This document shows, in pieces, positions 21,831-32,397 of a DNA stretch of 64,000 bases (position 1 is its first letter; every line of letters starts with the position of its first letter). The translations under genes and the position numbers were made by a program. The stretch is taken from the sequence record OL770074.2; one strand, written 5' to 3'. This DNA is from Escherichia phage vB_EcoM-RPN187. Below the pieces are notes generated by a model, which saw nothing but the letters and a program-made list of their open reading frames with translations, had not been told where the DNA came from and did not search any database.

Positions 21831-22995
21831 CGAAATCTTCCATTTCGTCAAGGTCATTTTCTATATCTGCTGCAGACGGAGCATCAGAAGTTTTAACCGG
21901 AACTTTAGTTGTTGCTTTGCAATTAATAAGGTCGTTAACAGCGTCATCAACTTCTTTAATAGAAGAGATAGCACCTAGTTTATATTTAGTTTCAATTGCA
22001 TCTCGGAAAGGTTTGTGTTTAAACAAAGGTCCCCAGAATTCTACACAATCAGTAGCTTTAGCACGCCATGATTTTTCTTCACGAATCATTTCGCCAGTTT
22101 CTTCGTCAAGGAATTCACGAGCATACCACCCGGCTTTAGGCTTAACTACAAAACCAATTTCAGTTGCCATTTCCAACAAGCCACTGAATGGGTCGATACC
22201 ACCATCAAAATTAACCGTGATTGGGAAAGTAGATTTTTCTTTAACGGTGCGAGATTTTTCTGCTTTCAGTGTGAAATCGTATCCGGTCAATTCTGTACCT
22301 TCTTTAACCTGACGTTTAGAGATAAAGAATACGGTGTTAGCAGAGTAAAGAATACCTGTACCACCGCCCATAATCTCTTTAGGATACAATCCGCCGATTT
22401 CCATTGCTGTATGGTTGATTGCAACACACGGAATATCTTTAATAGTCAGATACGGAGTCACAATGCGGAATAGAGATTTAAGTGCCTTAGCACGAGACAT
22501 ATCACCTACGACTTTCTCGTTCAATGCATCTTCAGTTTCTTTCTTAGATGCAGTATTACCGATTGAATCGATAAAGATAATAACTTTATCACCGCGTTCA
22601 ATAGCGTCAAGCTGATTAGTCATATCAACTTTAAGCTGTTCGACAGATTGAATCGGAGTATGAACTACACGGTCTAAATCAACACCCATTGAACGAAAAT
22701 AAGATTCCGAAGCACCAAATTCTGAATCATAGAACAAACAAATTGCATCTTTATATTTCTTCATATATGCTGCAACCATGGTCAGACCAAACAACGTTTT
22801 AAAGTGTTTAGAAGGAGCAGCAAAAATAGTTAAGCCTGATTGCAACCCGGCATTCAGTGCACCACCTAATGCAATATTCAACATCGGAATACGAGTAGGG
22901 ACTTCATCGCGATTATTAAACAACTTAGACTTAGTCAAGTCTGCAGTCATTTTAGAAGTAGAAGCTTTAATCAGACGAGATTTTAAATCAGACAT
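21823..22995 (-). CDS. uvsX: UvsX recombinase (RecA-like)
   Basis: 390 aa; N-terminus MSDLKSRLIKASTSK matches recalled T4 UvsX. Confidence 0.9.
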   Translation of the reverse strand: MSDLKSRLIKASTSKMTADLTKSKLFNNRDEVPTRIPMLNIALGGALNAGLQSGLTIFAAPSKHFKTLFGLTMVAAYMKKYKDAICLFYDSEFGASESYFRSMGVDLDRVVHTPIQSVEQLKVDMTNQLDAIERGDKVIIFIDSIGNTASKKETEDALNEKVVGDMSRAKALKSLFRIVTPYLTIKDIPCVAINHTAMEIGGLYPKEIMGGGTGILYSANTVFFISKRQVKEGTELTGYDFTLKAEKSRTVKEKSTFPITVNFDGGIDPFSGLLEMATEIGFVVKPKAGWYAREFLDEETGEMIREEKSWRAKATDCVEFWGPLFKHKPFRDAIETKYKLGAISSIKEVDDAVNDLINCKATTKVPVKTSDAPSAADIENDLDEMEDFDE

Positions 22996-23094
22996 TGTAT
23001 TTTTCCATAGGCATCATTATATTTTACTCATGTTTAAAAGATAAGACGATTATATACTAAGGGTTATACAGCATTTAAAACTTTAAACAGGCTC

Positions 23095-23643
23095 TTAACG
23101 AGCCCATTTGATAATTTCTGTAATCAAATTATTACGTTCGCTTGCATTAAATCCTATAACTTTGTTAGCACTATCATGATTAAGTAATTGATACGTTTGG
23201 ATTTTGTTATGAATTGCAAACTCTTCAAAATATGAAATGACTGTATTAAAACCGAATGAAGACAAAGTAATAAGGTCGTCTTCAAAACTTTCAGTCATTT
23301 CGTTACGTGTTAAAATAATTGTGAACACATCATGGTTTTGGCAAAGACGAACATAATCCTGTTCATAAACGTCAAGAACCGAGTCCACATCTTGTCGAAT
23401 ACGTCCATAAACCCAGTTACTAATATATCCACGGTCTAACAGATAAATCTTAGTAGGGTCTAAATAATTCAACATCGTTTCGAAACAGCCAACTTCATTT
23501 CGAGACTTAACATCAAAACGTCCATCAACTGTTCGTTTAGGGAAATCAATCTTTACATATCTTTCACTAATTTCCATTATGTCATTAATGAAAGTTGTTT
23601 TACCAGCATTATCCGGGCCATCTACTAAAATAATTTTAGCCAT
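23095..23643 (-). CDS. thymidylate kinase-like P-loop nucleotide kinase
   Basis: 182 aa; N-terminal ILVDGPDNAGKTT P-loop and LLDRGYIS (TMK DRY-like) motif; SD GAGGAA. Confidence 0.55.
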   Translation of the reverse strand: MAKIILVDGPDNAGKTTFINDIMEISERYVKIDFPKRTVDGRFDVKSRNEVGCFETMLNYLDPTKIYLLDRGYISNWVYGRIRQDVDSVLDVYEQDYVRLCQNHDVFTIILTRNEMTESFEDDLITLSSFGFNTVISYFEEFAIHNKIQTYQLLNHDSANKVIGFNASERNNLITEIIKWAR

Positions 23644-23644
23644 T

Positions 23645-24544
23645 TTATTCCTCGATTACGACATCTTCATATTTAGGTATATTATACGGCGAAGAAATTA
23701 AAGCATTAAAGTAGATGAACTCGCCAAGACCTGGATGGAATACTTCTTCAGGATTTTCGAAGTATTGAATCTTCGGACGTCCTTTAAGAATTTGATAGTA
23801 CTCAGTTTTAGTTGGTTTAAAAATTCGAATCAGCGCTTCTTCAGGATACTTATTTCTGTCGAAGCTATTATTTGGATCGGTTATATAAAGCGGTTGACCT
23901 AATTGAATTGCACATTCAACCACTTGTTCAAAACGATAACACGGGTCACTAATTCGAAATGGATGAAAAATACCATCTAGATGAATAGGAGCCAAATCAC
24001 CTACAAGACGCTGCATGATGGAAGGACGTATAACTTTCTGGGTTACGATAATCTTATTACCATCTGCACCTGCGTTAACCAGCACTTCTTTTTGACGTTC
24101 ATTCAACACAGTAGTTTGAAGTGAACGATTAACCGACAACATGTCGGTTTTTAAGAATTCGTCAATGTAAAAACGTGGTTTATTAGGGTCTGCAGTGATA
24201 TTGAAATTGAATTCTACATCAAAAGCGCCGTCATATCCAGTGATATCTGTGATTAGAAAATCACAATCATAATAAGCAATTAATGAATCAACCACAAATT
24301 CATTTTCAGACCAGAAATATTTACGAGTGTTATACGCGTTATCTTTATACCATAATGGAACAAACTTAAATTCTGGGAAAAGACGTTCGCATTCTTTAAT
24401 ATCAGATGCATTACGTGGATATGTAATAACATCACCTGGATTAGCACGGTGCAAATGAAGTTGGAAGTTGCCATCCTTAAGGATAGCATACTGTCCAGTT
24501 TCATAAGACCGCATACTCAAGATAGGTACGCGGAAAATAGCCAT
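23645..24544 (-). CDS. hypothetical protein at the T4 beta-glucosyltransferase locus
   Basis: 299 aa, ATG overlapping gp42 stop (TAATG); no motif recognised. Confidence 0.5.
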   Translation of the reverse strand: MAIFRVPILSMRSYETGQYAILKDGNFQLHLHRANPGDVITYPRNASDIKECERLFPEFKFVPLWYKDNAYNTRKYFWSENEFVVDSLIAYYDCDFLITDITGYDGAFDVEFNFNITADPNKPRFYIDEFLKTDMLSVNRSLQTTVLNERQKEVLVNAGADGNKIIVTQKVIRPSIMQRLVGDLAPIHLDGIFHPFRISDPCYRFEQVVECAIQLGQPLYITDPNNSFDRNKYPEEALIRIFKPTKTEYYQILKGRPKIQYFENPEEVFHPGLGEFIYFNALISSPYNIPKYEDVVIEE

Positions 24545-25260
24545 TAGTCAAGAAATCCTTTAACATAATCAAAATCACGTTCAAACACATGGGCACTTAC
24601 CATGGTATGAGTATAATCACCAACTTCTACACCACATTCGTTAGCGATATAATGAAGTAATTTTCCTTGGAGATAAAAATCCAACTGCATAACAACAGCA
24701 CAGTTCTGAGAACGCATATGACAGTGGGTATAAAGCTTACCATCACGAATATAATAAGTCACTGAGTCGGTACATGGATATTCAAGTGTTTCGTCTGAAT
24801 CAAGCAAAGCCTGATCAGAACTTTCTAGAATTTGGAACACAACTCTTCGAGAGTTAGGTTTTTCTTTAAGTTCTTTTAGAAGAGTTGGTAACTGGGCCGC
24901 AATGCGAGGACCATAGAAAGTGTTGAAGTTCGCAGGCAAAGCATCTGATTTTGGTTTAGAAATAAATTTAGCGACGTTAGGATATGCCTTAAATGCTTCT
25001 TCTGCATCAGTACCACCAGAAATCATAAATTTCCAGAAATCTTCAGCATATTCATAAGAGATGCGATTAATACGTGGGTCGGTCATTTTGAATGATGAAG
25101 GGGTATCAACAACTACTGTCATAGACCCAATTTCATTACAACGTCCAATACGAGAATCAGTTACGAATTCCGGGTTTTCTAAAATTTCACGATTGACTGC
25201 TTTAAATGCGGATTGAAAATCTGCGGCTTTAATATATTTCATTGTGTTATGTTTTCCCAT
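24544..25260 (-). CDS. 42: dCMP hydroxymethylase gp42 (thymidylate-synthase fold)
   Basis: 238 aa; CTDSVTYYIRD...MRSQN resembles recalled T4 gp42 active-site region; SD GAGGT. Confidence 0.7.
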   Translation of the reverse strand: MGKHNTMKYIKAADFQSAFKAVNREILENPEFVTDSRIGRCNEIGSMTVVVDTPSSFKMTDPRINRISYEYAEDFWKFMISGGTDAEEAFKAYPNVAKFISKPKSDALPANFNTFYGPRIAAQLPTLLKELKEKPNSRRVVFQILESSDQALLDSDETLEYPCTDSVTYYIRDGKLYTHCHMRSQNCAVVMQLDFYLQGKLLHYIANECGVEVGDYTHTMVSAHVFERDFDYVKGFLD

Positions 25261-25278
25261 GTTTACCTCAATACAGTT

Positions 25279-25302
25279 ATTATATACTCAATTCATAAAG
25301 CT
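25279..25302 (-). promoter_or_regulatory. possible middle-type promoter (MotA-box-like AGCTTTA 11 nt upstream of -10 TATAAT) before gene 42
   Basis: box deviates from TGCTT consensus at first position. Confidence 0.3.
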
Positions 25303-25393
25303 TATTTGAATTTCTTAGCGATGTTGATATAACGTAGAGCTTCGGCATCGATACTTCCAAGGACGCTATGAAGGAACGCGTCGACATAGTATT

Positions 25394-25543
25394 CTAGTTG
25401 AACAGGTTCTCTTTAATCACTTTAGCCGCTTTAGTTTCAAACAGGCCCATAAGGGCCTTTTTAAGAATTTGTTCGTTGTTGTTAATTTTAATAGTCAAAA
25501 TCTCTTCGTTAAGTTGGTGATTAAAAGTTTTTCTAGAAATCAT
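25394..25543 (-). CDS. possible small ORF (49 aa) coupled to upstream gene by ATGA overlap
   Basis: own translation MISRKTFNHQL...; contains a GGCCC/GGGCC hairpin, so may be non-coding. Confidence 0.25.
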   Translation of the reverse strand: MISRKTFNHQLNEEILTIKINNNEQILKKALMGLFETKAAKVIKENLFN

Positions 25544-26709
25544 TCTGGGTACCTCAAAGCGTCATCAGAGTTAGTTATATCAATAATAGATATAGAGTTT
25601 TCCGATAACCCATTTTTAGATAACTGACGTTTATAATATCTTTCACAATATGTACACGTCGTCCCGCAGATTTCATTAGCACAATCGAAATCTGGATGTT
25701 TGAACCACCTTTTTTCTAAAAAGCCATCTAACAAAGAGGTTTCAATATTTACCGTATGTGAAAACTCAGTCTCATTTTCAAGAGTGAAAATGGTCTCTAA
25801 AGGCTTCCACAATTCCAACAAATTACCTTCAAATTTTTCGGAAGCATAAGCTTCAAGAACTTTCAAAATGTAGTCTGTGCTACCTGTACGTCCTGAAACT
25901 TTGAATTGAGTGATACCAATATCATTATAAAGTTTCAAATCTTGAGGACGAACAAAACGAGTTCTCAACCAGTTAAATGGGTCTGTATCACGAGCTTTAA
26001 TACAGTGTTGCATTGGATATCCATTTAAGGATTTGGCATCATCTACTGTAACGTCGGTGCTATGGAAAATATAGCAAGAGTCACGATAACTACAATGTGT
26101 TGTATACCCTTTACCAGCATTAGAACAGAACTCATTTACAAGAACTTCAAATATTATATTGTTCTTATTGCAAAACTCTGCTGCACGCTTCAGGAAAGAA
26201 ACTGAACGGTTCTTATGAATTCCACAACAGACCTTTTTGATATTATACTGGTCATGCAAGTATTTGATTTGAGTTACAGCATCGACATGTAGAATTGTTG
26301 AAACTTCAATCTCAATGTCTTTATTGACTTCACGAACAATTTCCATAACAACAGGGTTAGCGATAGTAATACGCCATACGCCTATTGACCAAAGATACTG
26401 AACATAATCCTGAATAGCTTTCTTCTTCCACTCAACTAGTTCTCTTTTTGAACCAGGATTTATCGTGTTGAGTGTATAGTTAAAGCAAATACCTAATTCG
26501 TTACAACGTTTAACGTAATCTTCTAACATCTTTTTGTCAACGTCAGGAAGCCTAAAATCAGGTCTGGCTGCTACAAAAGCCATTTCTCTTGTAGAGCCGT
26601 ATACTTCGTTTATCAAGCTATTAGGATAAGTTTTATTGAGCTCTACGATTTTATCAAGAAGAGCTAAATCAAAATTCGTTCCGATTTTAAAGGTATTCAT
26701 TTTTTGCAT
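25540..26709 (-). CDS. hypothetical protein with weak resemblance to peptidase U32 (PrtC/RlhA/UbiU-type) family
   Basis: 389 aa; Cys-rich EFCSNAGKGYTTHCS and FKVSGRTGS reminiscent of U32 signature/LKIEGR motif; assignment tentative. Confidence 0.45.
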   Translation of the reverse strand: MQKMNTFKIGTNFDLALLDKIVELNKTYPNSLINEVYGSTREMAFVAARPDFRLPDVDKKMLEDYVKRCNELGICFNYTLNTINPGSKRELVEWKKKAIQDYVQYLWSIGVWRITIANPVVMEIVREVNKDIEIEVSTILHVDAVTQIKYLHDQYNIKKVCCGIHKNRSVSFLKRAAEFCNKNNIIFEVLVNEFCSNAGKGYTTHCSYRDSCYIFHSTDVTVDDAKSLNGYPMQHCIKARDTDPFNWLRTRFVRPQDLKLYNDIGITQFKVSGRTGSTDYILKVLEAYASEKFEGNLLELWKPLETIFTLENETEFSHTVNIETSLLDGFLEKRWFKHPDFDCANEICGTTCTYCERYYKRQLSKNGLSENSISIIDITNSDDALRYPE

Positions 26710-26756
26710 CTCGCCGTTAATTGATGCGATGGTTTTTGCAGGTCTTACTTAAATTA

Positions 26757-27158
26757 TTATAGATTCGGTTTATATGATTTAAATGTTTCGAATTCGCCTT
26801 TATTCATAAGAGCTTTGAATTCGTCAGGACGCATAGCTTTGTCGTCGATAATCCAATCATATACTGGTTTATGTGTTAGCAAATTATGGTACTTCAATCC
26901 AATGTTTGCCAAGTTCTGAATCAGACTTGGGAGAATGTCAATTGCTATACGACCCGGACCGACTGACTTCATACCGCGAGCAGTGTAAAGCGTTATGGTA
27001 TGCCCTGCATCATACAGGGCATTAATGGCAGACACCATTTCGACGTCTGGTTTGAAGTTCACGTAATCACGATTGTTATTCCACTCTGTTATACAATCAT
27101 CGACATCAAAACAAAGATTAAGCATGTTTTCTACACGGTGCATTAGATTCGTTCCCAT
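26757..27158 (-). CDS. small HAD-superfamily-like phosphatase (start uncertain)
   Basis: LCFDVDDCIT resembles HAD motif I; alternative starts at M6 (TAATG coupling) or M12. Confidence 0.45.
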   Translation of the reverse strand: MGTNLMHRVENMLNLCFDVDDCITEWNNNRDYVNFKPDVEMVSAINALYDAGHTITLYTARGMKSVGPGRIAIDILPSLIQNLANIGLKYHNLLTHKPVYDWIIDDKAMRPDEFKALMNKGEFETFKSYKPNL

Positions 27159-28828
27159 TGATGAGTGATATCGCCACCGATTGGACGATAGGAAACACCA
27201 GTTTCTTTATCAGTTAGTACCCATTTACCAGGATTTTTTGTAATCAGAGTAGCCGTTACAGGTTCTGCTACGTCATAACTAATAGAGCCGTCCTGAAGTA
27301 CACGGCCCATGTTACGTAATTGCTTAGTCAGAAGTTCCATACCTTTATAATATGCGGCTACCGCTTTAAGTGGATTATTCTTGAAATAACCACCTAATGC
27401 AATCCAGATAATTGCCACTGCCAAATGATGATACTCGTTAAACGAACTCATCTTTCCATATTTGTAAACTAATGGATTGATGTTAATAGTCACATTACAA
27501 GTTGTTTCATCAATAGTAAACTGTCCCCAGGTCGGATTAGCGTTGAATTCATCATACCCTGAAACAGCATAAAGCACTTTAGCTTCGTCATACAATTTTG
27601 GCCCGTAAATCTTGGTTTCACCAAAATATCCACGAGGGTCAATAAACTTGACTTCACCATTATCAGTAATCATAGTATTACTGAAGTTCGGGTCACCATG
27701 AATAACAGAGTACTGTCCCTGAGAACGGTTATGATAACGAATAAGGTGTTCTAAAGCTTGTCTCAACATTGGCTTCAGACGTCCAATCTTAGTGTAGTTC
27801 ACATGTGTGATTTTACCAAATGAATCAATCAATGGTTGAATACTTTCACAACGATCAATAACTTTCGTATAGAATTCTTTAGTGAAATCACGACGAACAG
27901 TTTCAGGACTTACAAAATAAGTGTCTGTGCTGAATTTCAGTGCATCTAAAATTGCATCAACAATTTGTGGACGAGCAAGACTTGATTTGGATTTAATATA
28001 TTCAAATGCCGGCTTACCTTTAATGCGTTCCATTTCAAAGTTATTTTCATTAACAGAAACTAACTGAGGAACTGAATCTGATTTCACTTTAAGATACCAT
28101 GAAATCTCATCTTTCTGAAGAGCTCGGCCCTGTTCGGTTAATGCGAATTTAGTTACAGTTTCTTCACCAATTTCAACTGCGTTAAAACTACGATTAAGTT
28201 CACGAACTTCATGAGCTTTTTCAAGTTTAGGCATATCACCTAAATCAATTAGATTCATAAGCTCTGATTTATTGAATGCGCTGCCGTAAAGGAATTCTAC
28301 GAAATCACGTCCTTTGCAGTATTCATGAATTTCCTCATCAGTAGAACCCATATAGAATTCCCAGTCTTTGAACTGATAAATTCCTACAACATTACCACCT
28401 GTTGAACCTACGTTAGTGATATTTTCACCGTCGAAATTATATCGACATTCGTCGCCCTTAACATAGATTGCGTTAACATTCCAAGACCACGAACCAAAAT
28501 CAGGAATAATATCACACCAGTTAACAATTACATTATGGCCGTCTAAATCTTTGTGCAATTTAGCAAGAGCATAAGCAGAACCATATGCTTCATCAACTGT
28601 ACGAATAGTCACATTGAACCCTTCTTGCTCACAATAAGCTCGAACAGTTTCAGCAAATTTTGAATGAACTACTACAATAATTTCATCTGCGCCAAGGTCA
28701 GAATAAATTGTATACAAATTGCTCAGAATAGTGTCTTGTTTATAGTTAACAAGCACCTTAGGAATATGATGCGTTATTGGATACAAACGAGTTGCCAGTC
28801 CAGCACCAAGAATAACAGCTTTTTTCAT
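27143..28828 (-). CDS. bifunctional sugar-phosphate nucleotidyltransferase (N-terminal) / APH-like kinase (C-terminal)
   Basis: 561 aa; N-terminal ILGAGLATRL (GxGxR NTase motif); C-terminal HGDPNFSNTMI and FIDPRGYFG (Brenner/APH kinase motifs); SD GAGGA. Confidence 0.7.
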   Translation of the reverse strand: MKKAVILGAGLATRLYPITHHIPKVLVNYKQDTILSNLYTIYSDLGADEIIVVVHSKFAETVRAYCEQEGFNVTIRTVDEAYGSAYALAKLHKDLDGHNVIVNWCDIIPDFGSWSWNVNAIYVKGDECRYNFDGENITNVGSTGGNVVGIYQFKDWEFYMGSTDEEIHEYCKGRDFVEFLYGSAFNKSELMNLIDLGDMPKLEKAHEVRELNRSFNAVEIGEETVTKFALTEQGRALQKDEISWYLKVKSDSVPQLVSVNENNFEMERIKGKPAFEYIKSKSSLARPQIVDAILDALKFSTDTYFVSPETVRRDFTKEFYTKVIDRCESIQPLIDSFGKITHVNYTKIGRLKPMLRQALEHLIRYHNRSQGQYSVIHGDPNFSNTMITDNGEVKFIDPRGYFGETKIYGPKLYDEAKVLYAVSGYDEFNANPTWGQFTIDETTCNVTININPLVYKYGKMSSFNEYHHLAVAIIWIALGGYFKNNPLKAVAAYYKGMELLTKQLRNMGRVLQDGSISYDVAEPVTATLITKNPGKWVLTDKETGVSYRPIGGDITHQWERI

Positions 28829-28869
28829 GTTGTGGTCCTCATTGGTAAGTAGGAGTATTGTACACTATT

Positions 28870-29013
28870 CTAGTTAAAGCATTCATACTTTGCTTGTAGT
28901 CCAATCATAATCCATCCGATTATAAGAGTCGGAATCATTACTGGAGCCGTTAAGCTCCAGTAGATAGTCATGACAAGCATCAATAGTAAAAGTCCTATTG
29001 TTATTGCTTTCAT
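28870..29013 (-). CDS. possible small two-TM membrane protein (47 aa), coupled to the SIS gene stop
   Basis: own translation MKAITIGLLLLMLVMTIYW...; ATG overlaps upstream TGA. Confidence 0.4.
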   Translation of the reverse strand: MKAITIGLLLLMLVMTIYWSLTAPVMIPTLIIGWIMIGLQAKYECFN

Positions 29014-29645
29014 TGTTCGCCTCGTAACATGGCACCTAGTGCACCGCCAGGGTGGAACTTAAGGAAGTCATTAGAGGTAAATCCACGTTCAGACGAAAGG
29101 TTGATAGCAAACGTATCGATAAGCGCTAACAACAATGTAGTGGACATGGTCGGAGCCAGAGAATTCTCATCAACCTCTACTGCGATGCCTGTACAGAACG
29201 TATAATCAAAAAGAGCTTCGTATTCTTGTGGAATGTCCGGGTTACAATGCAACAGAATCTGTTTGACGTTCGGACGAATCATTTTAAGATGCTTAGCCAC
29301 GCCTATCATTTCTTCAGTTTTACCAGAACGACTAATATGAATCAACACATCATTAGGCGCAATGAATCCTGCATCACCGTGAGAATAATGTCCAGTGTTC
29401 AAGTACATACTCGGGATACCGAGTGAAGCAAATGTCTCAGAAGCTTTAGTTGCAATATTAGCATTCTTACCAACACCTGTAATAATTACTCGGCTTTCAT
29501 AATTACTAAGTCCAGGACGTCGAAGAGTTTCTAGAATAGCATTATAACGAGCAGGGTTTTGACTAATTACTTTGGCCATAGCGGCCAAAGAAGAAGCTTG
29601 TTTTATGATTGCGTCAATAGCGATAGTAATAGGAGTAGTTTTCAT
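29010..29645 (-). CDS. SIS-domain sugar-phosphate isomerase (KdsD/GutQ-like arabinose-5-phosphate isomerase)
   Basis: 211 aa; ITGVGKNANIA and ISRSGKTEE SIS motifs; SD GAGAG. Confidence 0.7.
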   Translation of the reverse strand: MKTTPITIAIDAIIKQASSLAAMAKVISQNPARYNAILETLRRPGLSNYESRVIITGVGKNANIATKASETFASLGIPSMYLNTGHYSHGDAGFIAPNDVLIHISRSGKTEEMIGVAKHLKMIRPNVKQILLHCNPDIPQEYEALFDYTFCTGIAVEVDENSLAPTMSTTLLLALIDTFAINLSSERGFTSNDFLKFHPGGALGAMLRGEQ

Positions 29646-29685
29646 ATTTCTCTCATTTAATTAGTTTGCCGTCCATGTCATTATA

Positions 29686-32397
29686 TCAAAAATCGAACAT
29701 ATCGAACAGAGATGCTTTCTTCTCGTAATCGAGTTTCGCTGCTGATGTGAATCCTTCAAGTGGTTTAATAAATGTCTTCTCAAGGAGAACAGTGTAGTCC
29801 ATCCAATGAAGTACGTCGTCTTTAATTAAATCTGTGATTTCAGTACCAGAAGGCCATGCGATACATTTATCACCGAATGGGTTTCCTTCACGTAAAGGCA
29901 GAACATATACTTTTTCACCTTCTACAACTTGTGGTGCATCGATATTACCTTTGATAGCACGGTTATACGTCAGAATTCCACGAATATGGAATGGGCATTT
30001 AGGACCAGGGAATCCACCTACATCATATTTAGCAATGTTATTCGCAGAAGATACTGACGCGATGCTAATATAATTCAATTGACGGAATTCTTTTTCAAAC
30101 TCTTTAAAATATTCTTGTAATGATTCTTCGCCTTCCTGAAGCATACGACGAATACATTCTTTAAGAGCTTTCTGTACTGCTTTAGGAGTCGAAGATTTCT
30201 GAGTCTCTAGACCCATGATTTTGAGTTTAGGCTCAGCGTATCTGGTTCCTTCCATATCCCACACGTTTAATGCATAACGTTTCTTACCAGTCCAGAATCC
30301 ACCAATACCTTTAGAACCGAGTGGAGGCCCAGCGATAGCTTCTCGGTCCATGAACATTAAGTGTTGTTTATTGTTCATGTATTCACACATTTCACGGAAA
30401 CCTCTATCAATAGCTGGTTCCATACGTTCACGTGCAAACTTATCTAAGAAGTCTACCCAATGGTTGGTATCACGGAATTTAGATTCACCAACCTTATCGA
30501 TAATTTTATCAGCAGATACGTAAATAGAGTCTGTATCACCATAAAGAACGAAAGCTTCACCTTCTGTGCCACAAACTTCATTCAGATATTCATTAACTTT
30601 ACGTTCAATCCACTGTAAAGCCATTTGCCCGAATGTTGTGATTGCAGTAGCATTACGCAAATCGTAATAACGGAACCAAACGTTGCCAAGTGCACCATAA
30701 AGTGAGTTGATAAGCAATTTACGGTTAATTTGGGCAGTCATACCTGCAACTTCAGTACGTTGAGCTCTAAACAACATTTCATTAAGAGATTTAGCAGACA
30801 ACTTTTTAATCTTTTCTTTAATCTCATCACTGAAGTCGAAACGATAATCAACATCTAATGGTTCGTCAACAGAAAGATTAGGATTATGCAATGCCTCTTT
30901 AATTATTTCACCATTACGTTGAGCTGCAAGCATGTAACCTTTATGTTCTTTACGTTGATTAAAGACCTTAGTGATTTCAGTTGGAACAACACCGTCACGG
31001 TCTTTATAATACATCATGCCGTTAGGAGAACAACTGTACACATCAGAAGGACGTTCAGCAACAGCGTTAATATAATCATGTAATGGAGCTACTTTAAACG
31101 TTCCTGCTATTGTTTCTGGGCTAATATTCACTTGGCGAATAATACTTGGATACAGAGATGTAAGGTCGAAACTCATTACATATTTGTATCGATTTGGAAT
31201 AGGTTCCTTAACAAAAGCGCCTGGATAAGGTTGAACCGGGTGAGAACGACCTTGTGGAATCACCTTGTTCTGCTCTTTAAGGCTATTAAAAATAATAGCA
31301 TCCCATGTTTTAATTGGACTAAACACAGATTGAATCTGTATCTTAGCATAATAACCCATATCCAAACTCAAGTTGATGAACTGACGCTTAGCATCAATTT
31401 GCAATACACGATACACGTCGATAATGTTATAAGAAATATATCGTTGGTGATTGCTTTCACGAAGCTTAGAAATAGGGCCGTCATATTTCAGTTTACCAAC
31501 GTTCAATTCAAATTCTGAAATGTAATCCAGAGAATATGACGGTTGATTGGTAAAAGAGAATTTTTTGTAAAGGTCAATGTAATCAAGAACAGAGATACCG
31601 AACAATGTAATGATTTCACGAGAACCATACATGTTTTCGATAACTTTAACACGAGTTTTACGATGTGGTGATAAACGTTTCGCAGTAGATTCGCCAAAAA
31701 TATTCTTTATTCGGTTATACACATACGGAATATCAAATGACTCAACGTTCCATCCAGTCAAAACGACAGGAGTTTTCTGTTGCCAGAAGTTGAGATATTC
31801 CATCAACAATTCTTTTTCGTTATCGAACGGCATATAAATGATTTTATCGATAATTTCGGATGGAACTTCATCACCACCTTGTTCTTGAAGCTTAGCCGCA
31901 ATTTCGATAGACCATTCTTCTACATTACCATATGGAGAATTCAAAAGGTCAAATACGTAGAACCTGTCGTCAATTGAGTCATAATGAGTGATAGCATCAA
32001 TCGGGTGTTTTGCTTGTGACGGCTCAGGGAACCCATCCGGAGATGTTACTTCGATGTCGAAGTTAGCCACACGAATTTTTGTATGGTCGTATTTGATTTC
32101 ATAGTTATAAGTGTCAGACAAATACGCCAATTTGAAATCGTCCATGCCAAGTGCTTCAAGTCCGATATCTTCCATGCGTTTAATCCATTGGGAGGCATCA
32201 CGCATATTGGCGAACAACTTACGAGTACACGGCTTACCGTAGATATCGAAATATTTCGTAGCCTGACTTTCTGGACAATGAGCAAACAGTGATGGTTTAT
32301 ATTCTACTTCACGAGTACGTTCACGGCCGTTAGAATCGATGTAACGTTCAAAAATTGAATCACCAATCTGTTCAACCGTTAAGTAAAATTCTTTCAT
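29686..32397 (-). CDS. 43: DNA polymerase gp43 (family B, with 3'-5' exonuclease)
   Basis: 903 aa; exo and pol motifs (FDIE, YGDTDS, SLYGALG); T4 gp43 898 aa. Confidence 0.92.
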   Translation of the reverse strand: MKEFYLTVEQIGDSIFERYIDSNGRERTREVEYKPSLFAHCPESQATKYFDIYGKPCTRKLFANMRDASQWIKRMEDIGLEALGMDDFKLAYLSDTYNYEIKYDHTKIRVANFDIEVTSPDGFPEPSQAKHPIDAITHYDSIDDRFYVFDLLNSPYGNVEEWSIEIAAKLQEQGGDEVPSEIIDKIIYMPFDNEKELLMEYLNFWQQKTPVVLTGWNVESFDIPYVYNRIKNIFGESTAKRLSPHRKTRVKVIENMYGSREIITLFGISVLDYIDLYKKFSFTNQPSYSLDYISEFELNVGKLKYDGPISKLRESNHQRYISYNIIDVYRVLQIDAKRQFINLSLDMGYYAKIQIQSVFSPIKTWDAIIFNSLKEQNKVIPQGRSHPVQPYPGAFVKEPIPNRYKYVMSFDLTSLYPSIIRQVNISPETIAGTFKVAPLHDYINAVAERPSDVYSCSPNGMMYYKDRDGVVPTEITKVFNQRKEHKGYMLAAQRNGEIIKEALHNPNLSVDEPLDVDYRFDFSDEIKEKIKKLSAKSLNEMLFRAQRTEVAGMTAQINRKLLINSLYGALGNVWFRYYDLRNATAITTFGQMALQWIERKVNEYLNEVCGTEGEAFVLYGDTDSIYVSADKIIDKVGESKFRDTNHWVDFLDKFARERMEPAIDRGFREMCEYMNNKQHLMFMDREAIAGPPLGSKGIGGFWTGKKRYALNVWDMEGTRYAEPKLKIMGLETQKSSTPKAVQKALKECIRRMLQEGEESLQEYFKEFEKEFRQLNYISIASVSSANNIAKYDVGGFPGPKCPFHIRGILTYNRAIKGNIDAPQVVEGEKVYVLPLREGNPFGDKCIAWPSGTEITDLIKDDVLHWMDYTVLLEKTFIKPLEGFTSAAKLDYEKKASLFDMFDF

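Follow-up and report, generated by a model that had tools for sequence, protein, structure and literature searches.

The subject of this analysis is a minus-strand open reading frame (ORF) of Escherichia phage vB_EcoM-RPN187 (sequence record OL770074.2, of which a stretch of 64,000 nucleotides, hereafter the window, was analyzed) that encodes a bifunctional nucleotidyltransferase/kinase. It is an already published enzyme, the function of which has already been published for an ortholog: very likely, the protein is the counterpart of AfhE from phage HY126 and carries out two non-adjacent steps of a phage-encoded synthesis of uridine diphosphate (UDP)-D-arabinofuranose. In the proposed route the adjacent SIS isomerase would first convert host ribulose-5-phosphate to D-arabinose-5-phosphate, which the C-terminal kinase domain of the fusion would phosphorylate at C1 with adenosine triphosphate to give arabinofuranose-1,5-bisphosphate; the downstream HAD phosphatase would then strip the 5-phosphate to leave arabinofuranose-1-phosphate, and the N-terminal RmlA/MurU-type domain would turn the latter, with uridine triphosphate (UTP), into UDP-arabinofuranose and pyrophosphate. 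Phage glycosyltransferases, among them putative DNA arabinosyltransferase 1 as the presumed consumer of the activated sugar, would finally place arabinose on the 5-hydroxycytosine of phage DNA and thereby protect it from host nucleases. The two activities of the fusion would thus constitute the second and fourth steps and be non-consecutive, because the HAD phosphatase acts between them. The folds, the catalytic residues, the order and coupling of the genes, the near-identity to phage RB69 and the identity of the neighbors to crystallized proteins come from the present analysis, and the activities and their order from the literature.

The ORF lies exactly where the original prediction had placed it (Table 1), begins with an ATG located 8 nucleotides downstream of a GAGGA Shine-Dalgarno sequence, and specifies a protein that is present at NCBI as ULA51988.1, labelled 'hypothetical protein' of Escherichia phage vB_EcoM-RPN187, and that phrog_4098 covers over its full length (E 3.8e-295). 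The claim that it joins a nucleotidyltransferase to an APH-like kinase is borne out by Pfam, by scans of its homologs and by an AlphaFold2 model built from an alignment of 43 homologous sequences (mean pLDDT 93.7, pTM 0.91), off which the domain limits were read. The proportions of the two halves had been estimated with varying success, given that the transferase occupies about 205 residues rather than 250, the kinase about 290 compared with the 300 claimed, and that a small, mostly beta/coil extension of 54 residues at the C-terminus had gone unmentioned. Pfam assigns NTP_transferase to residues 3-99 of the protein (E 8.6e-10), and a sequence search of the PDB recovered generic nucleotidyltransferases over residues 1-96 but no entry that represents this very protein. 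On the kinase side, residues 308-409 give sub-threshold matches to Fructosamin_kin, RIO1, EcKL and APH, the latter (PF01636) scoring 14.7 bits (E 0.027) against a gathering threshold of 23.2 bits. When the 43 homologs are scanned singly, NTP_transferase is found in 36 and APH in 19 (best E 6.1e-10); Foldseek retrieves APH(2'')-IIa with the model (E 9e-8), and the structural matches as a whole are ePK-like kinases and RmlA-like transferases. The kinase fold on which the original prediction had staked itself is therefore present, and the protein is a divergent relative of the APH family, with which it has fold and catalytic motifs in common and whose threshold several of its homologs pass, and not an aminoglycoside kinase.

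The motifs point in the same direction, with one exception. HGDxxxxN, one of the signatures on which the kinase assignment had been based, occurs once in the protein as HGDPNFSN, for which the chance expectation is 0.003; DxxG is present in three copies versus approximately 2.3 expected by chance, and only the copy within IDPRG is invariant in the homologs. The literal GxGxR motif that had been ascribed to the transferase is absent from the protein, its place being taken by GAGLATR; the full signature G8-A-G10-L-A-T-R14-L is that of LicC (AAGLGTRL) with an Ala replacing the second Gly, and K24 follows it. Over the 43 homologs, which extend down to 28% identity, residues G10, R14, K24, D106, D195 and D198 of the transferase and K227, E241, G378-D379, N384 and D397 of the kinase are invariant, H377 of the kinase motif is invariant or nearly so, and invariance extends to the basic residues R213, R326, R399, K417 and K488. 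The protein hence displays the features that mark the AfhE family, i.e. an RmlA-like transferase domain with its signature and acidic metal- and sugar-binding residues, and an APH/ePK-like kinase domain with an intact beta3 Lys, alphaC Glu, HxD...N and metal-binding Asp. Both halves are predicted to be catalytically active because their catalytic residues are invariant and because the gene is under purifying selection, as described below. That only the nucleotidyltransferase half is catalytic, the C-terminal half being a degenerate pseudokinase with the role of scaffold or regulator, would agree with database names such as 'NTP transferase domain-containing protein', 'GlmU' and 'mannose-1-phosphate guanyltransferase' and with Pfam kinase matches that stay below threshold for this very protein. 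Such proteins typically lose their phosphotransfer residues, however, whereas here K227, E241, H377-G-D379, N384 and D397 persist in homologs as distant as those aligned, and kinase activity of AfhE is reported in PMC13326640. We have rejected this alternative, which on these grounds is very improbable.

The link to characterized phages is provided by RB69. Over 561 amino acids the protein is 99.5% identical to the product of RB69 ORF053c and ORF052c (ORF53_52c, gp52:53), and the corresponding genes differ by 39 substitutions, which fall almost entirely on third codon positions and are mostly synonymous; that so many silent changes coexist with such protein identity indicates purifying selection. 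In an alignment of the two genes, the RB69 GenBank record carries an additional C at gene position 655, an insertion that splits the gene artificially and from which the RPN187 copy is free. Synteny with RB69 is complete, the inserted block of the window corresponding one-to-one to ORF055c through ORF045c. Thomas et al. 2018 (PMC6024577) showed by resequencing that RB69 ORF053c/052c is a single 561-residue ORF divided in GenBank by an extra C, found it to be expressed as one band, and named both it and ORF055c as candidate genes of UDP-arabinose synthesis. Lee et al. 2026 (Nucleic Acids Research, PMC13326640) describe the RB69 modification as arabinosylated 5-hydroxycytosine, assign to gp52:53 an N-terminal nucleotidyltransferase and a C-terminal kinase domain with structural matches to 4y7t, 1jyk, 3ham and 6hwl, the families of which were recovered independently in our analysis, and treat gp52:53 and HY126 AfhE as equivalent. 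Homologs of the RPN187 protein are also present in phages that the same authors name as carriers of arabinosyl-5-hydroxycytosine, namely Serratia 92A1 (52% identity) and Acinetobacter DLP-type phages (57%).

A second line of evidence comes from the neighbors. From the Met at 27143 onward the HAD protein of the window is 100% identical to PDB entry 9iqw ('capsule biosynthesis protein'), and the ThyA homolog agrees with the 238-residue 'thymidylate synthase' of entries 9iqc, 9ir2 and 9iqu at all but 3 positions (98.7% identity). Lee et al. refer to a crystallized ThyA homolog from HY126, and 9iqw and the 9iqc-type entries very probably derive from the HY126 study of He et al.; if so, the characterized phage and the one analyzed here belong essentially to one species. 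By way of RB69 and of these entries, the protein is the presumed ortholog of HY126 AfhE. Its names in the databases do not reflect this: among the matches listed (373 phage records match), most are called 'hypothetical protein' and none AfhE, and some bear the wrong names 'GlmU' or 'mannose-1-phosphate guanyltransferase'. We have discarded both of the latter, since the C-terminal half is a kinase without a beta-helix and no equivalog-level match exists, the NCBIfam models GlmU, RmlA and ManC matching only residues 3-109, with 15-50 bits where 290-720 are required.

Where our reading departs from the original prediction is in the substrate. An NDP-sugar (nucleoside diphosphate sugar) pyrophosphorylase combined with an anomeric kinase of the APH fold and serving the formation of NDP-D-arabinose was correctly foreseen; what finds no support is the free sugar as starting point, in lieu of which the kinase would use a sugar phosphate, so that the notion of a one-protein activation gives way to a pathway of four steps and three proteins, with the isomerase and the HAD phosphatase adjoining the gene. 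According to the text of PMC13326640, which cites He et al. 2026 (Nature Chemical Biology), HY126 AfhE uses D-arabinose 5-phosphate as its kinase substrate and yields the 1,5-bisphosphate, from which the Mg-dependent HAD phosphatase AfhF generates arabinofuranose-1-phosphate; the N-terminal domain of AfhE makes UDP-arabinofuranose only after the 5-phosphate has been removed. This account also opposes the order implied by the original prediction, whereby the phosphatase would act first to release free D-arabinose from arabinose-5-phosphate and the fusion protein alone would produce arabinose-1-phosphate and then NDP-arabinose, as in salvage by MupP, AmgK and MurU or in FKP-type kinase/pyrophosphorylases. 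Chemistry and pathway logic argue likewise for the kinase acting first. The sugar in the DNA is a furanose, the ring form that a 5-phosphate imposes, and free D-arabinose exists mainly as pyranose; we infer on these chemical grounds that leaving the 5-phosphate in place while C1 is phosphorylated holds the sugar in the form found in DNA. Moreover, a set made up of an isomerase, a kinase, a HAD protein and a nucleotidyltransferase fits the GmhA/HldE/GmhB scheme, in which the kinase precedes the phosphatase. We accordingly regard phosphatase-first as unlikely, and an assay of the protein with free D-arabinose, as proposed along with the original prediction, would probably give a negative or weak outcome.

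Several considerations nevertheless count against the assignment of the protein as an AfhE ortholog that acts before and after the phosphatase. The activities and the step order are known to us second-hand, through the citation of He et al. 2026 in PMC13326640, and Table 1 of the latter paper contradicts its own text by placing the phosphatase first and letting the kinase act on free arabinose. The enzymatic activities of the RPN187 protein itself are predictions, the specificity for UTP is not something that can be read from sequence, and the protein's own matches to Pfam kinase families all lie under the gathering thresholds. In addition, orthology with AfhE is derived via RB69 and via PDB entries of the neighbors, whose source organism is not shown.

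The genomic surroundings are those expected for the AfhE family, an isomerase, a HAD phosphatase, a ThyA homolog and glycosyltransferases all being encoded on the minus strand within 23095-29645. They are difficult to reconcile with a LicCA-type enzyme, i.e. a choline or amino-alcohol kinase joined to a CTP:phospho-alcohol cytidylyltransferase that would make cytidine diphosphate (CDP)-choline or another CDP-alcohol. Around the gene stand an arabinose-5-phosphate isomerase, a HAD phosphatase of the sugar-phosphate type, glycosyltransferases and a 5-hydroxy-deoxycytidine monophosphate (5-hydroxy-dCMP) synthase; the DNA of Mosigvirus carries arabinose and not phosphocholine (PMC13326640, PMC13390438); and the protein is only 12-21% identical to Lic proteins. 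For these three reasons we reject the LicCA-like reading, which is scarcely credible, and retain that of an AfhE-type enzyme.

Table 1. Coordinates of the nucleotidyltransferase/kinase gene, its domains and motifs, the surrounding genes and the HAD partners of homologs (window positions unless another contig or protein is named).
Feature	Position	Strand	Residues or size	Remarks
Bifunctional nucleotidyltransferase/kinase ORF	27143..28828	minus	561 aa + stop	
RmlA/LicC/MurU-type sugar-1-phosphate nucleotidyltransferase domain	28214..28828	minus	aa 1-205	N-terminal
Linker between transferase and kinase			aa 206-215	limits from AlphaFold2 model
Kinase domain, APH/choline-kinase (ePK-like) fold	27308..28183	minus	aa 216-507	
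C-terminal tail	27146..27307	minus	aa 508-561	
Transferase signature GAGLATRL	28784-28807	minus	aa 8-15	
Transferase K24	28757-28759	minus	K24	
Kinase K227	28148-28150	minus	K227	
Kinase E241	28106-28108	minus	E241	
Kinase HGDPNFSN	27677-27700	minus	aa 377-384	
Kinase IDPRG	27629-27643	minus	aa 396-400	
SIS-domain D-arabinose-5-phosphate isomerase	29010..29645	minus	211 aa	KpsF/KdsD family; RB69 gp55
Strongly hydrophobic ORF	28870..29013	minus	47 aa	between isomerase and fusion gene
HAD-superfamily phosphatase	26757..27143	minus	128 aa	RB69 gp51; AfhF equivalent
Peptidase-U32-family protein	25540-26709	minus	389 aa	Pfam E 6.4e-11
Thymidylate-synthase homolog, 5-hydroxy-dCMP synthase	24544..25260	minus	238 aa	RB69 gp48; Pfam Thymidylat_synt E 1.9e-15
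Putative DNA arabinosyltransferase 1	23645..24544	minus	299 aa	RB69 gp46:47; phrog_3891; Table 1 of PMC13326640
Thymidylate-kinase-like P-loop protein	23095-23643	minus		
HAD partner, contig L007	9599-10138			
HAD partner, contig L005	9575-10234			
HAD part of fusion P0092			aa 6-177	

By gene order the window is a T4-type phage replication module, entirely on the minus strand, in which gp41 and UvsX are followed by the inserted gene block and then by gp43 polymerase, RegA, gp62, gp44, gp45, gp46 and gp47. The DNA of the fusion gene is 95-99% identical to that of 147 records of RB69-group phages (e.g. AV112, F2, JS09 and HX01), the RB69 record belongs to the genus Mosigvirus, and the window is that of a Mosigvirus, i.e. 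an RB69-like coliphage. A scan of 22900-29800 gave 22 promoter-like and 4 terminator-like sites, numbers that do not exceed those of shuffled sequences (25.8 and 3.5).

Upstream of the fusion gene, the isomerase is identified by Pfam SIS (E 1.7e-10), by phrog_5670 'arabinose 5-phosphate isomerase' (E 2e-116) and by NCBIfam KdsD (E 1.2e-30), with PDB matches to 3etn, 5uqi and 2xhz. The 47-residue ORF that separates the two genes (MKAITIGLLLLMLVMTIYWSLTAPVMIPTLIIGWIMIGLQAKYECFN) has two predicted membrane-spanning stretches and an ATG that overlaps the isomerase stop codon (ATGA), and is equivalent to RB69ORF054c, for which RB69 annotates a shorter version of 36 residues. Downstream, the ATG of the HAD phosphatase shares a base with the TAA stop of the fusion gene (TAATG), and the phosphatase is translationally coupled to it; the protein matches 1xpj (E 5e-10) and NCBIfam TIGR01689 'capsule biosynthesis phosphatase' (E 3.8e-13). 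The same gene (window 26757-27158) is called 'phosphoheptose isomerase' in many phage records and in PHROG phrog_1238, and once 'haloacid dehydrogenase'; both labels are erroneous and are passed on from one annotated Mosigvirus genome to the next.

RB69 gp48, the ThyA homolog, makes 5-hydroxy-dCMP according to PMC13326640 and so provides the hydroxyl acceptor for arabinosylation. The ORF of arabinosyltransferase 1 is intact in the window, while an extra T in the RB69 record splits it into ORF046c and ORF047c, in support of the sequencing error already claimed in the literature. The reverse holds for the equivalent of RB69ORF049c (79 residues in RB69; approximately 25280-25543), which is broken in the window into ORFs of 49 and 35 residues by a 2-nucleotide plus a 1-nucleotide difference, reflecting either real variation or another error of the old RB69 record. 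The U32-family protein, the gene of which is located between those of the HAD phosphatase and the 5-hydroxy-dCMP synthase, has a C-terminal Cys cluster (DCANEICGTTCTYC) and a weak, sub-threshold NCBIfam match to UbiU (E 4.9e-4), and a PDB sequence search with it returned no match. Proteins of this family (RlhA, TrhP, UbiU/V) perform oxygen-independent C5 hydroxylation of RNA pyrimidines, as well as hydroxylation of quinones. As a candidate only, the phage protein could represent an anaerobic route to 5-hydroxycytosine beside the oxygen- and flavin-dependent ThyA homolog. Lee et al. (PMC13326640) list it as a 'sugar or heterocycle reductase' and mention RNA hydroxylation pathways, with no link drawn to the protein; its role may already be addressed by He et al.

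Distant homologs widen the picture. In three large contigs of uncultured phages (up to 350 kb; L001 7135-12997, L002 4082-9944 and L007 4618-11081), homologs with 35-37% identity are retained within a module that comprises a SIS isomerase, a glycosyltransferase (L001 and L002), the nucleotidyltransferase-kinase, a HAD protein of the Hydrolase_3 type whose gene overlaps the kinase gene by 4 nucleotides, and a ThyA homolog, with Flavodoxin_2 and UDG-like genes nearby; this suggests that glycosylated 5-hydroxycytosine exists outside T4-like phages. In contig L005 the gene adjoins a HAD gene. Six proteins of 890-955 residues (P0084, P0088, P0089, P0092, P0095 and P0108; 29-35% identity) are four-domain HAD-SIS-nucleotidyltransferase-kinase fusions, the SIS part of which is 32% identical to the isomerase of the window (E 2e-24). 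The fusion loci L003 8001-10781 and L004 8001-10781 lie in a giant-virus-like context, with MutS7-HNH, RNA polymerase Rpb2, RNA_pol_N and an Atg3-like gene as neighbors and no ThyA homolog within 8 kb of the fusion genes; another of the fusions, P0091, comes from a eukaryotic transcriptome.

In every homolog context examined, a HAD phosphatase is adjacent to or fused with the nucleotidyltransferase-kinase. These partners belong to three unrelated subfamilies without pairwise similarity to one another (EcbF/BcbF-like of the 1xpj type, Hydrolase_3 and HAD_2), and BLASTP of the HAD protein of the window against the HAD parts of the distant homologs detected no similarity, a pattern that looks like the recruitment of different subfamilies, i.e. 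non-orthologous displacement, and not like a loss of the phosphatase step. Such recurrent adjacency and fusion is comparative evidence that the phosphatase step is integral to the pathway. The occurrence of the four-domain fusions on giant-virus-like contigs and in a eukaryotic transcript, away from any ThyA homolog, suggests that this pathway, leading to NDP-D-arabinofuranose or some related pentose nucleotide, serves purposes well outside the modification of phage DNA, with giant-virus or protist glycans as a possible destination.

The C-terminal tail, modelled with a pLDDT of 82-91, follows relatedness: it is present, with 52-62 residues and a conserved PxKW motif, in every aligned homolog more than 35% identical to the RPN187 protein, those with names being phage proteins and the others unnamed metagenomic sequences, and it is absent or at most 14 residues long in homologs below that identity. 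The 54 residues of the present protein might act as a tether to the phosphatase or isomerase partners, that is, within a channelling complex. The use of the wider family beyond phage DNA modification, together with tethering by the tail as a secondary point, is a tentative proposal that we consider rather doubtful, and both matters may already be covered by He et al. 2026.

The importance of the enzyme lies in that it would supply the activated sugar for the arabinosyl-5-hydroxycytosine hypermodification of DNA, by virtue of which RB69-like phages resist many restriction enzymes and show altered sensitivity to other bacterial defenses; hence its relevance to phage therapy, and also to the enzymatic synthesis of UDP-D-arabinofuranose. 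It brings no new biology, given that it has been a candidate for UDP-arabinose synthesis since 2018 and that its ortholog has been biochemically characterized according to the 2026 paper (PMC13326640). The practical value of the analysis is to correct the annotation of the gene and of the neighboring phosphatase.

Among known systems, the closest are thus RB69 gp52:53 and HY126 AfhE, the latter described in PMC13326640 as an N-terminal NDP-sugar pyrophosphorylase with a C-terminal kinase, partnered by the HAD protein AfhF and devoted to UDP-D-arabinose for arabinosyl-5-hydroxycytosine DNA; the RPN187 protein is not known to differ from it and is presumed to be the same. The AmgK/MurU pair that works with MupP in the recycling of N-acetylmuramic acid (MurNAc) by Pseudomonas differs in consisting of separate proteins with MurNAc or N-acetylglucosamine as substrate, and in that the phosphatase acts first, on MurNAc-6-phosphate, so that the kinase meets a free sugar. 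LicA and LicC of Streptococcus pneumoniae, and the LicCA fusion of Treponema denticola, convert choline to CDP-choline in consecutive steps and without isomerase or phosphatase partners. The parallel in pathway logic is nucleotide-heptose synthesis, which proceeds through the SIS isomerase GmhA, the kinase and adenylyltransferase HldE/RfaE and the HAD 7-phosphatase GmhB, or, in its guanosine diphosphate variant, through HddA, GmhB and HddC. There, too, a fused enzyme, HldE, performs the second and fourth steps around a HAD phosphatase, and the phage pathway would be its pentose counterpart, the substrate of the heptose pathways being a heptose. The building blocks are different nonetheless: HldE joins a kinase of the ribokinase/PfkB fold to a transferase of the HIGH-motif cytidylyltransferase fold, with the domains arranged the other way round, the phage protein has no Pfam or NCBIfam match to PfkB or CTP_transf_like and so falls outside HldE/RfaE, and HddA is a GHMP kinase. 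The resemblance is one of function, of analogy and not of homology, except as regards HddC and the SIS enzyme.

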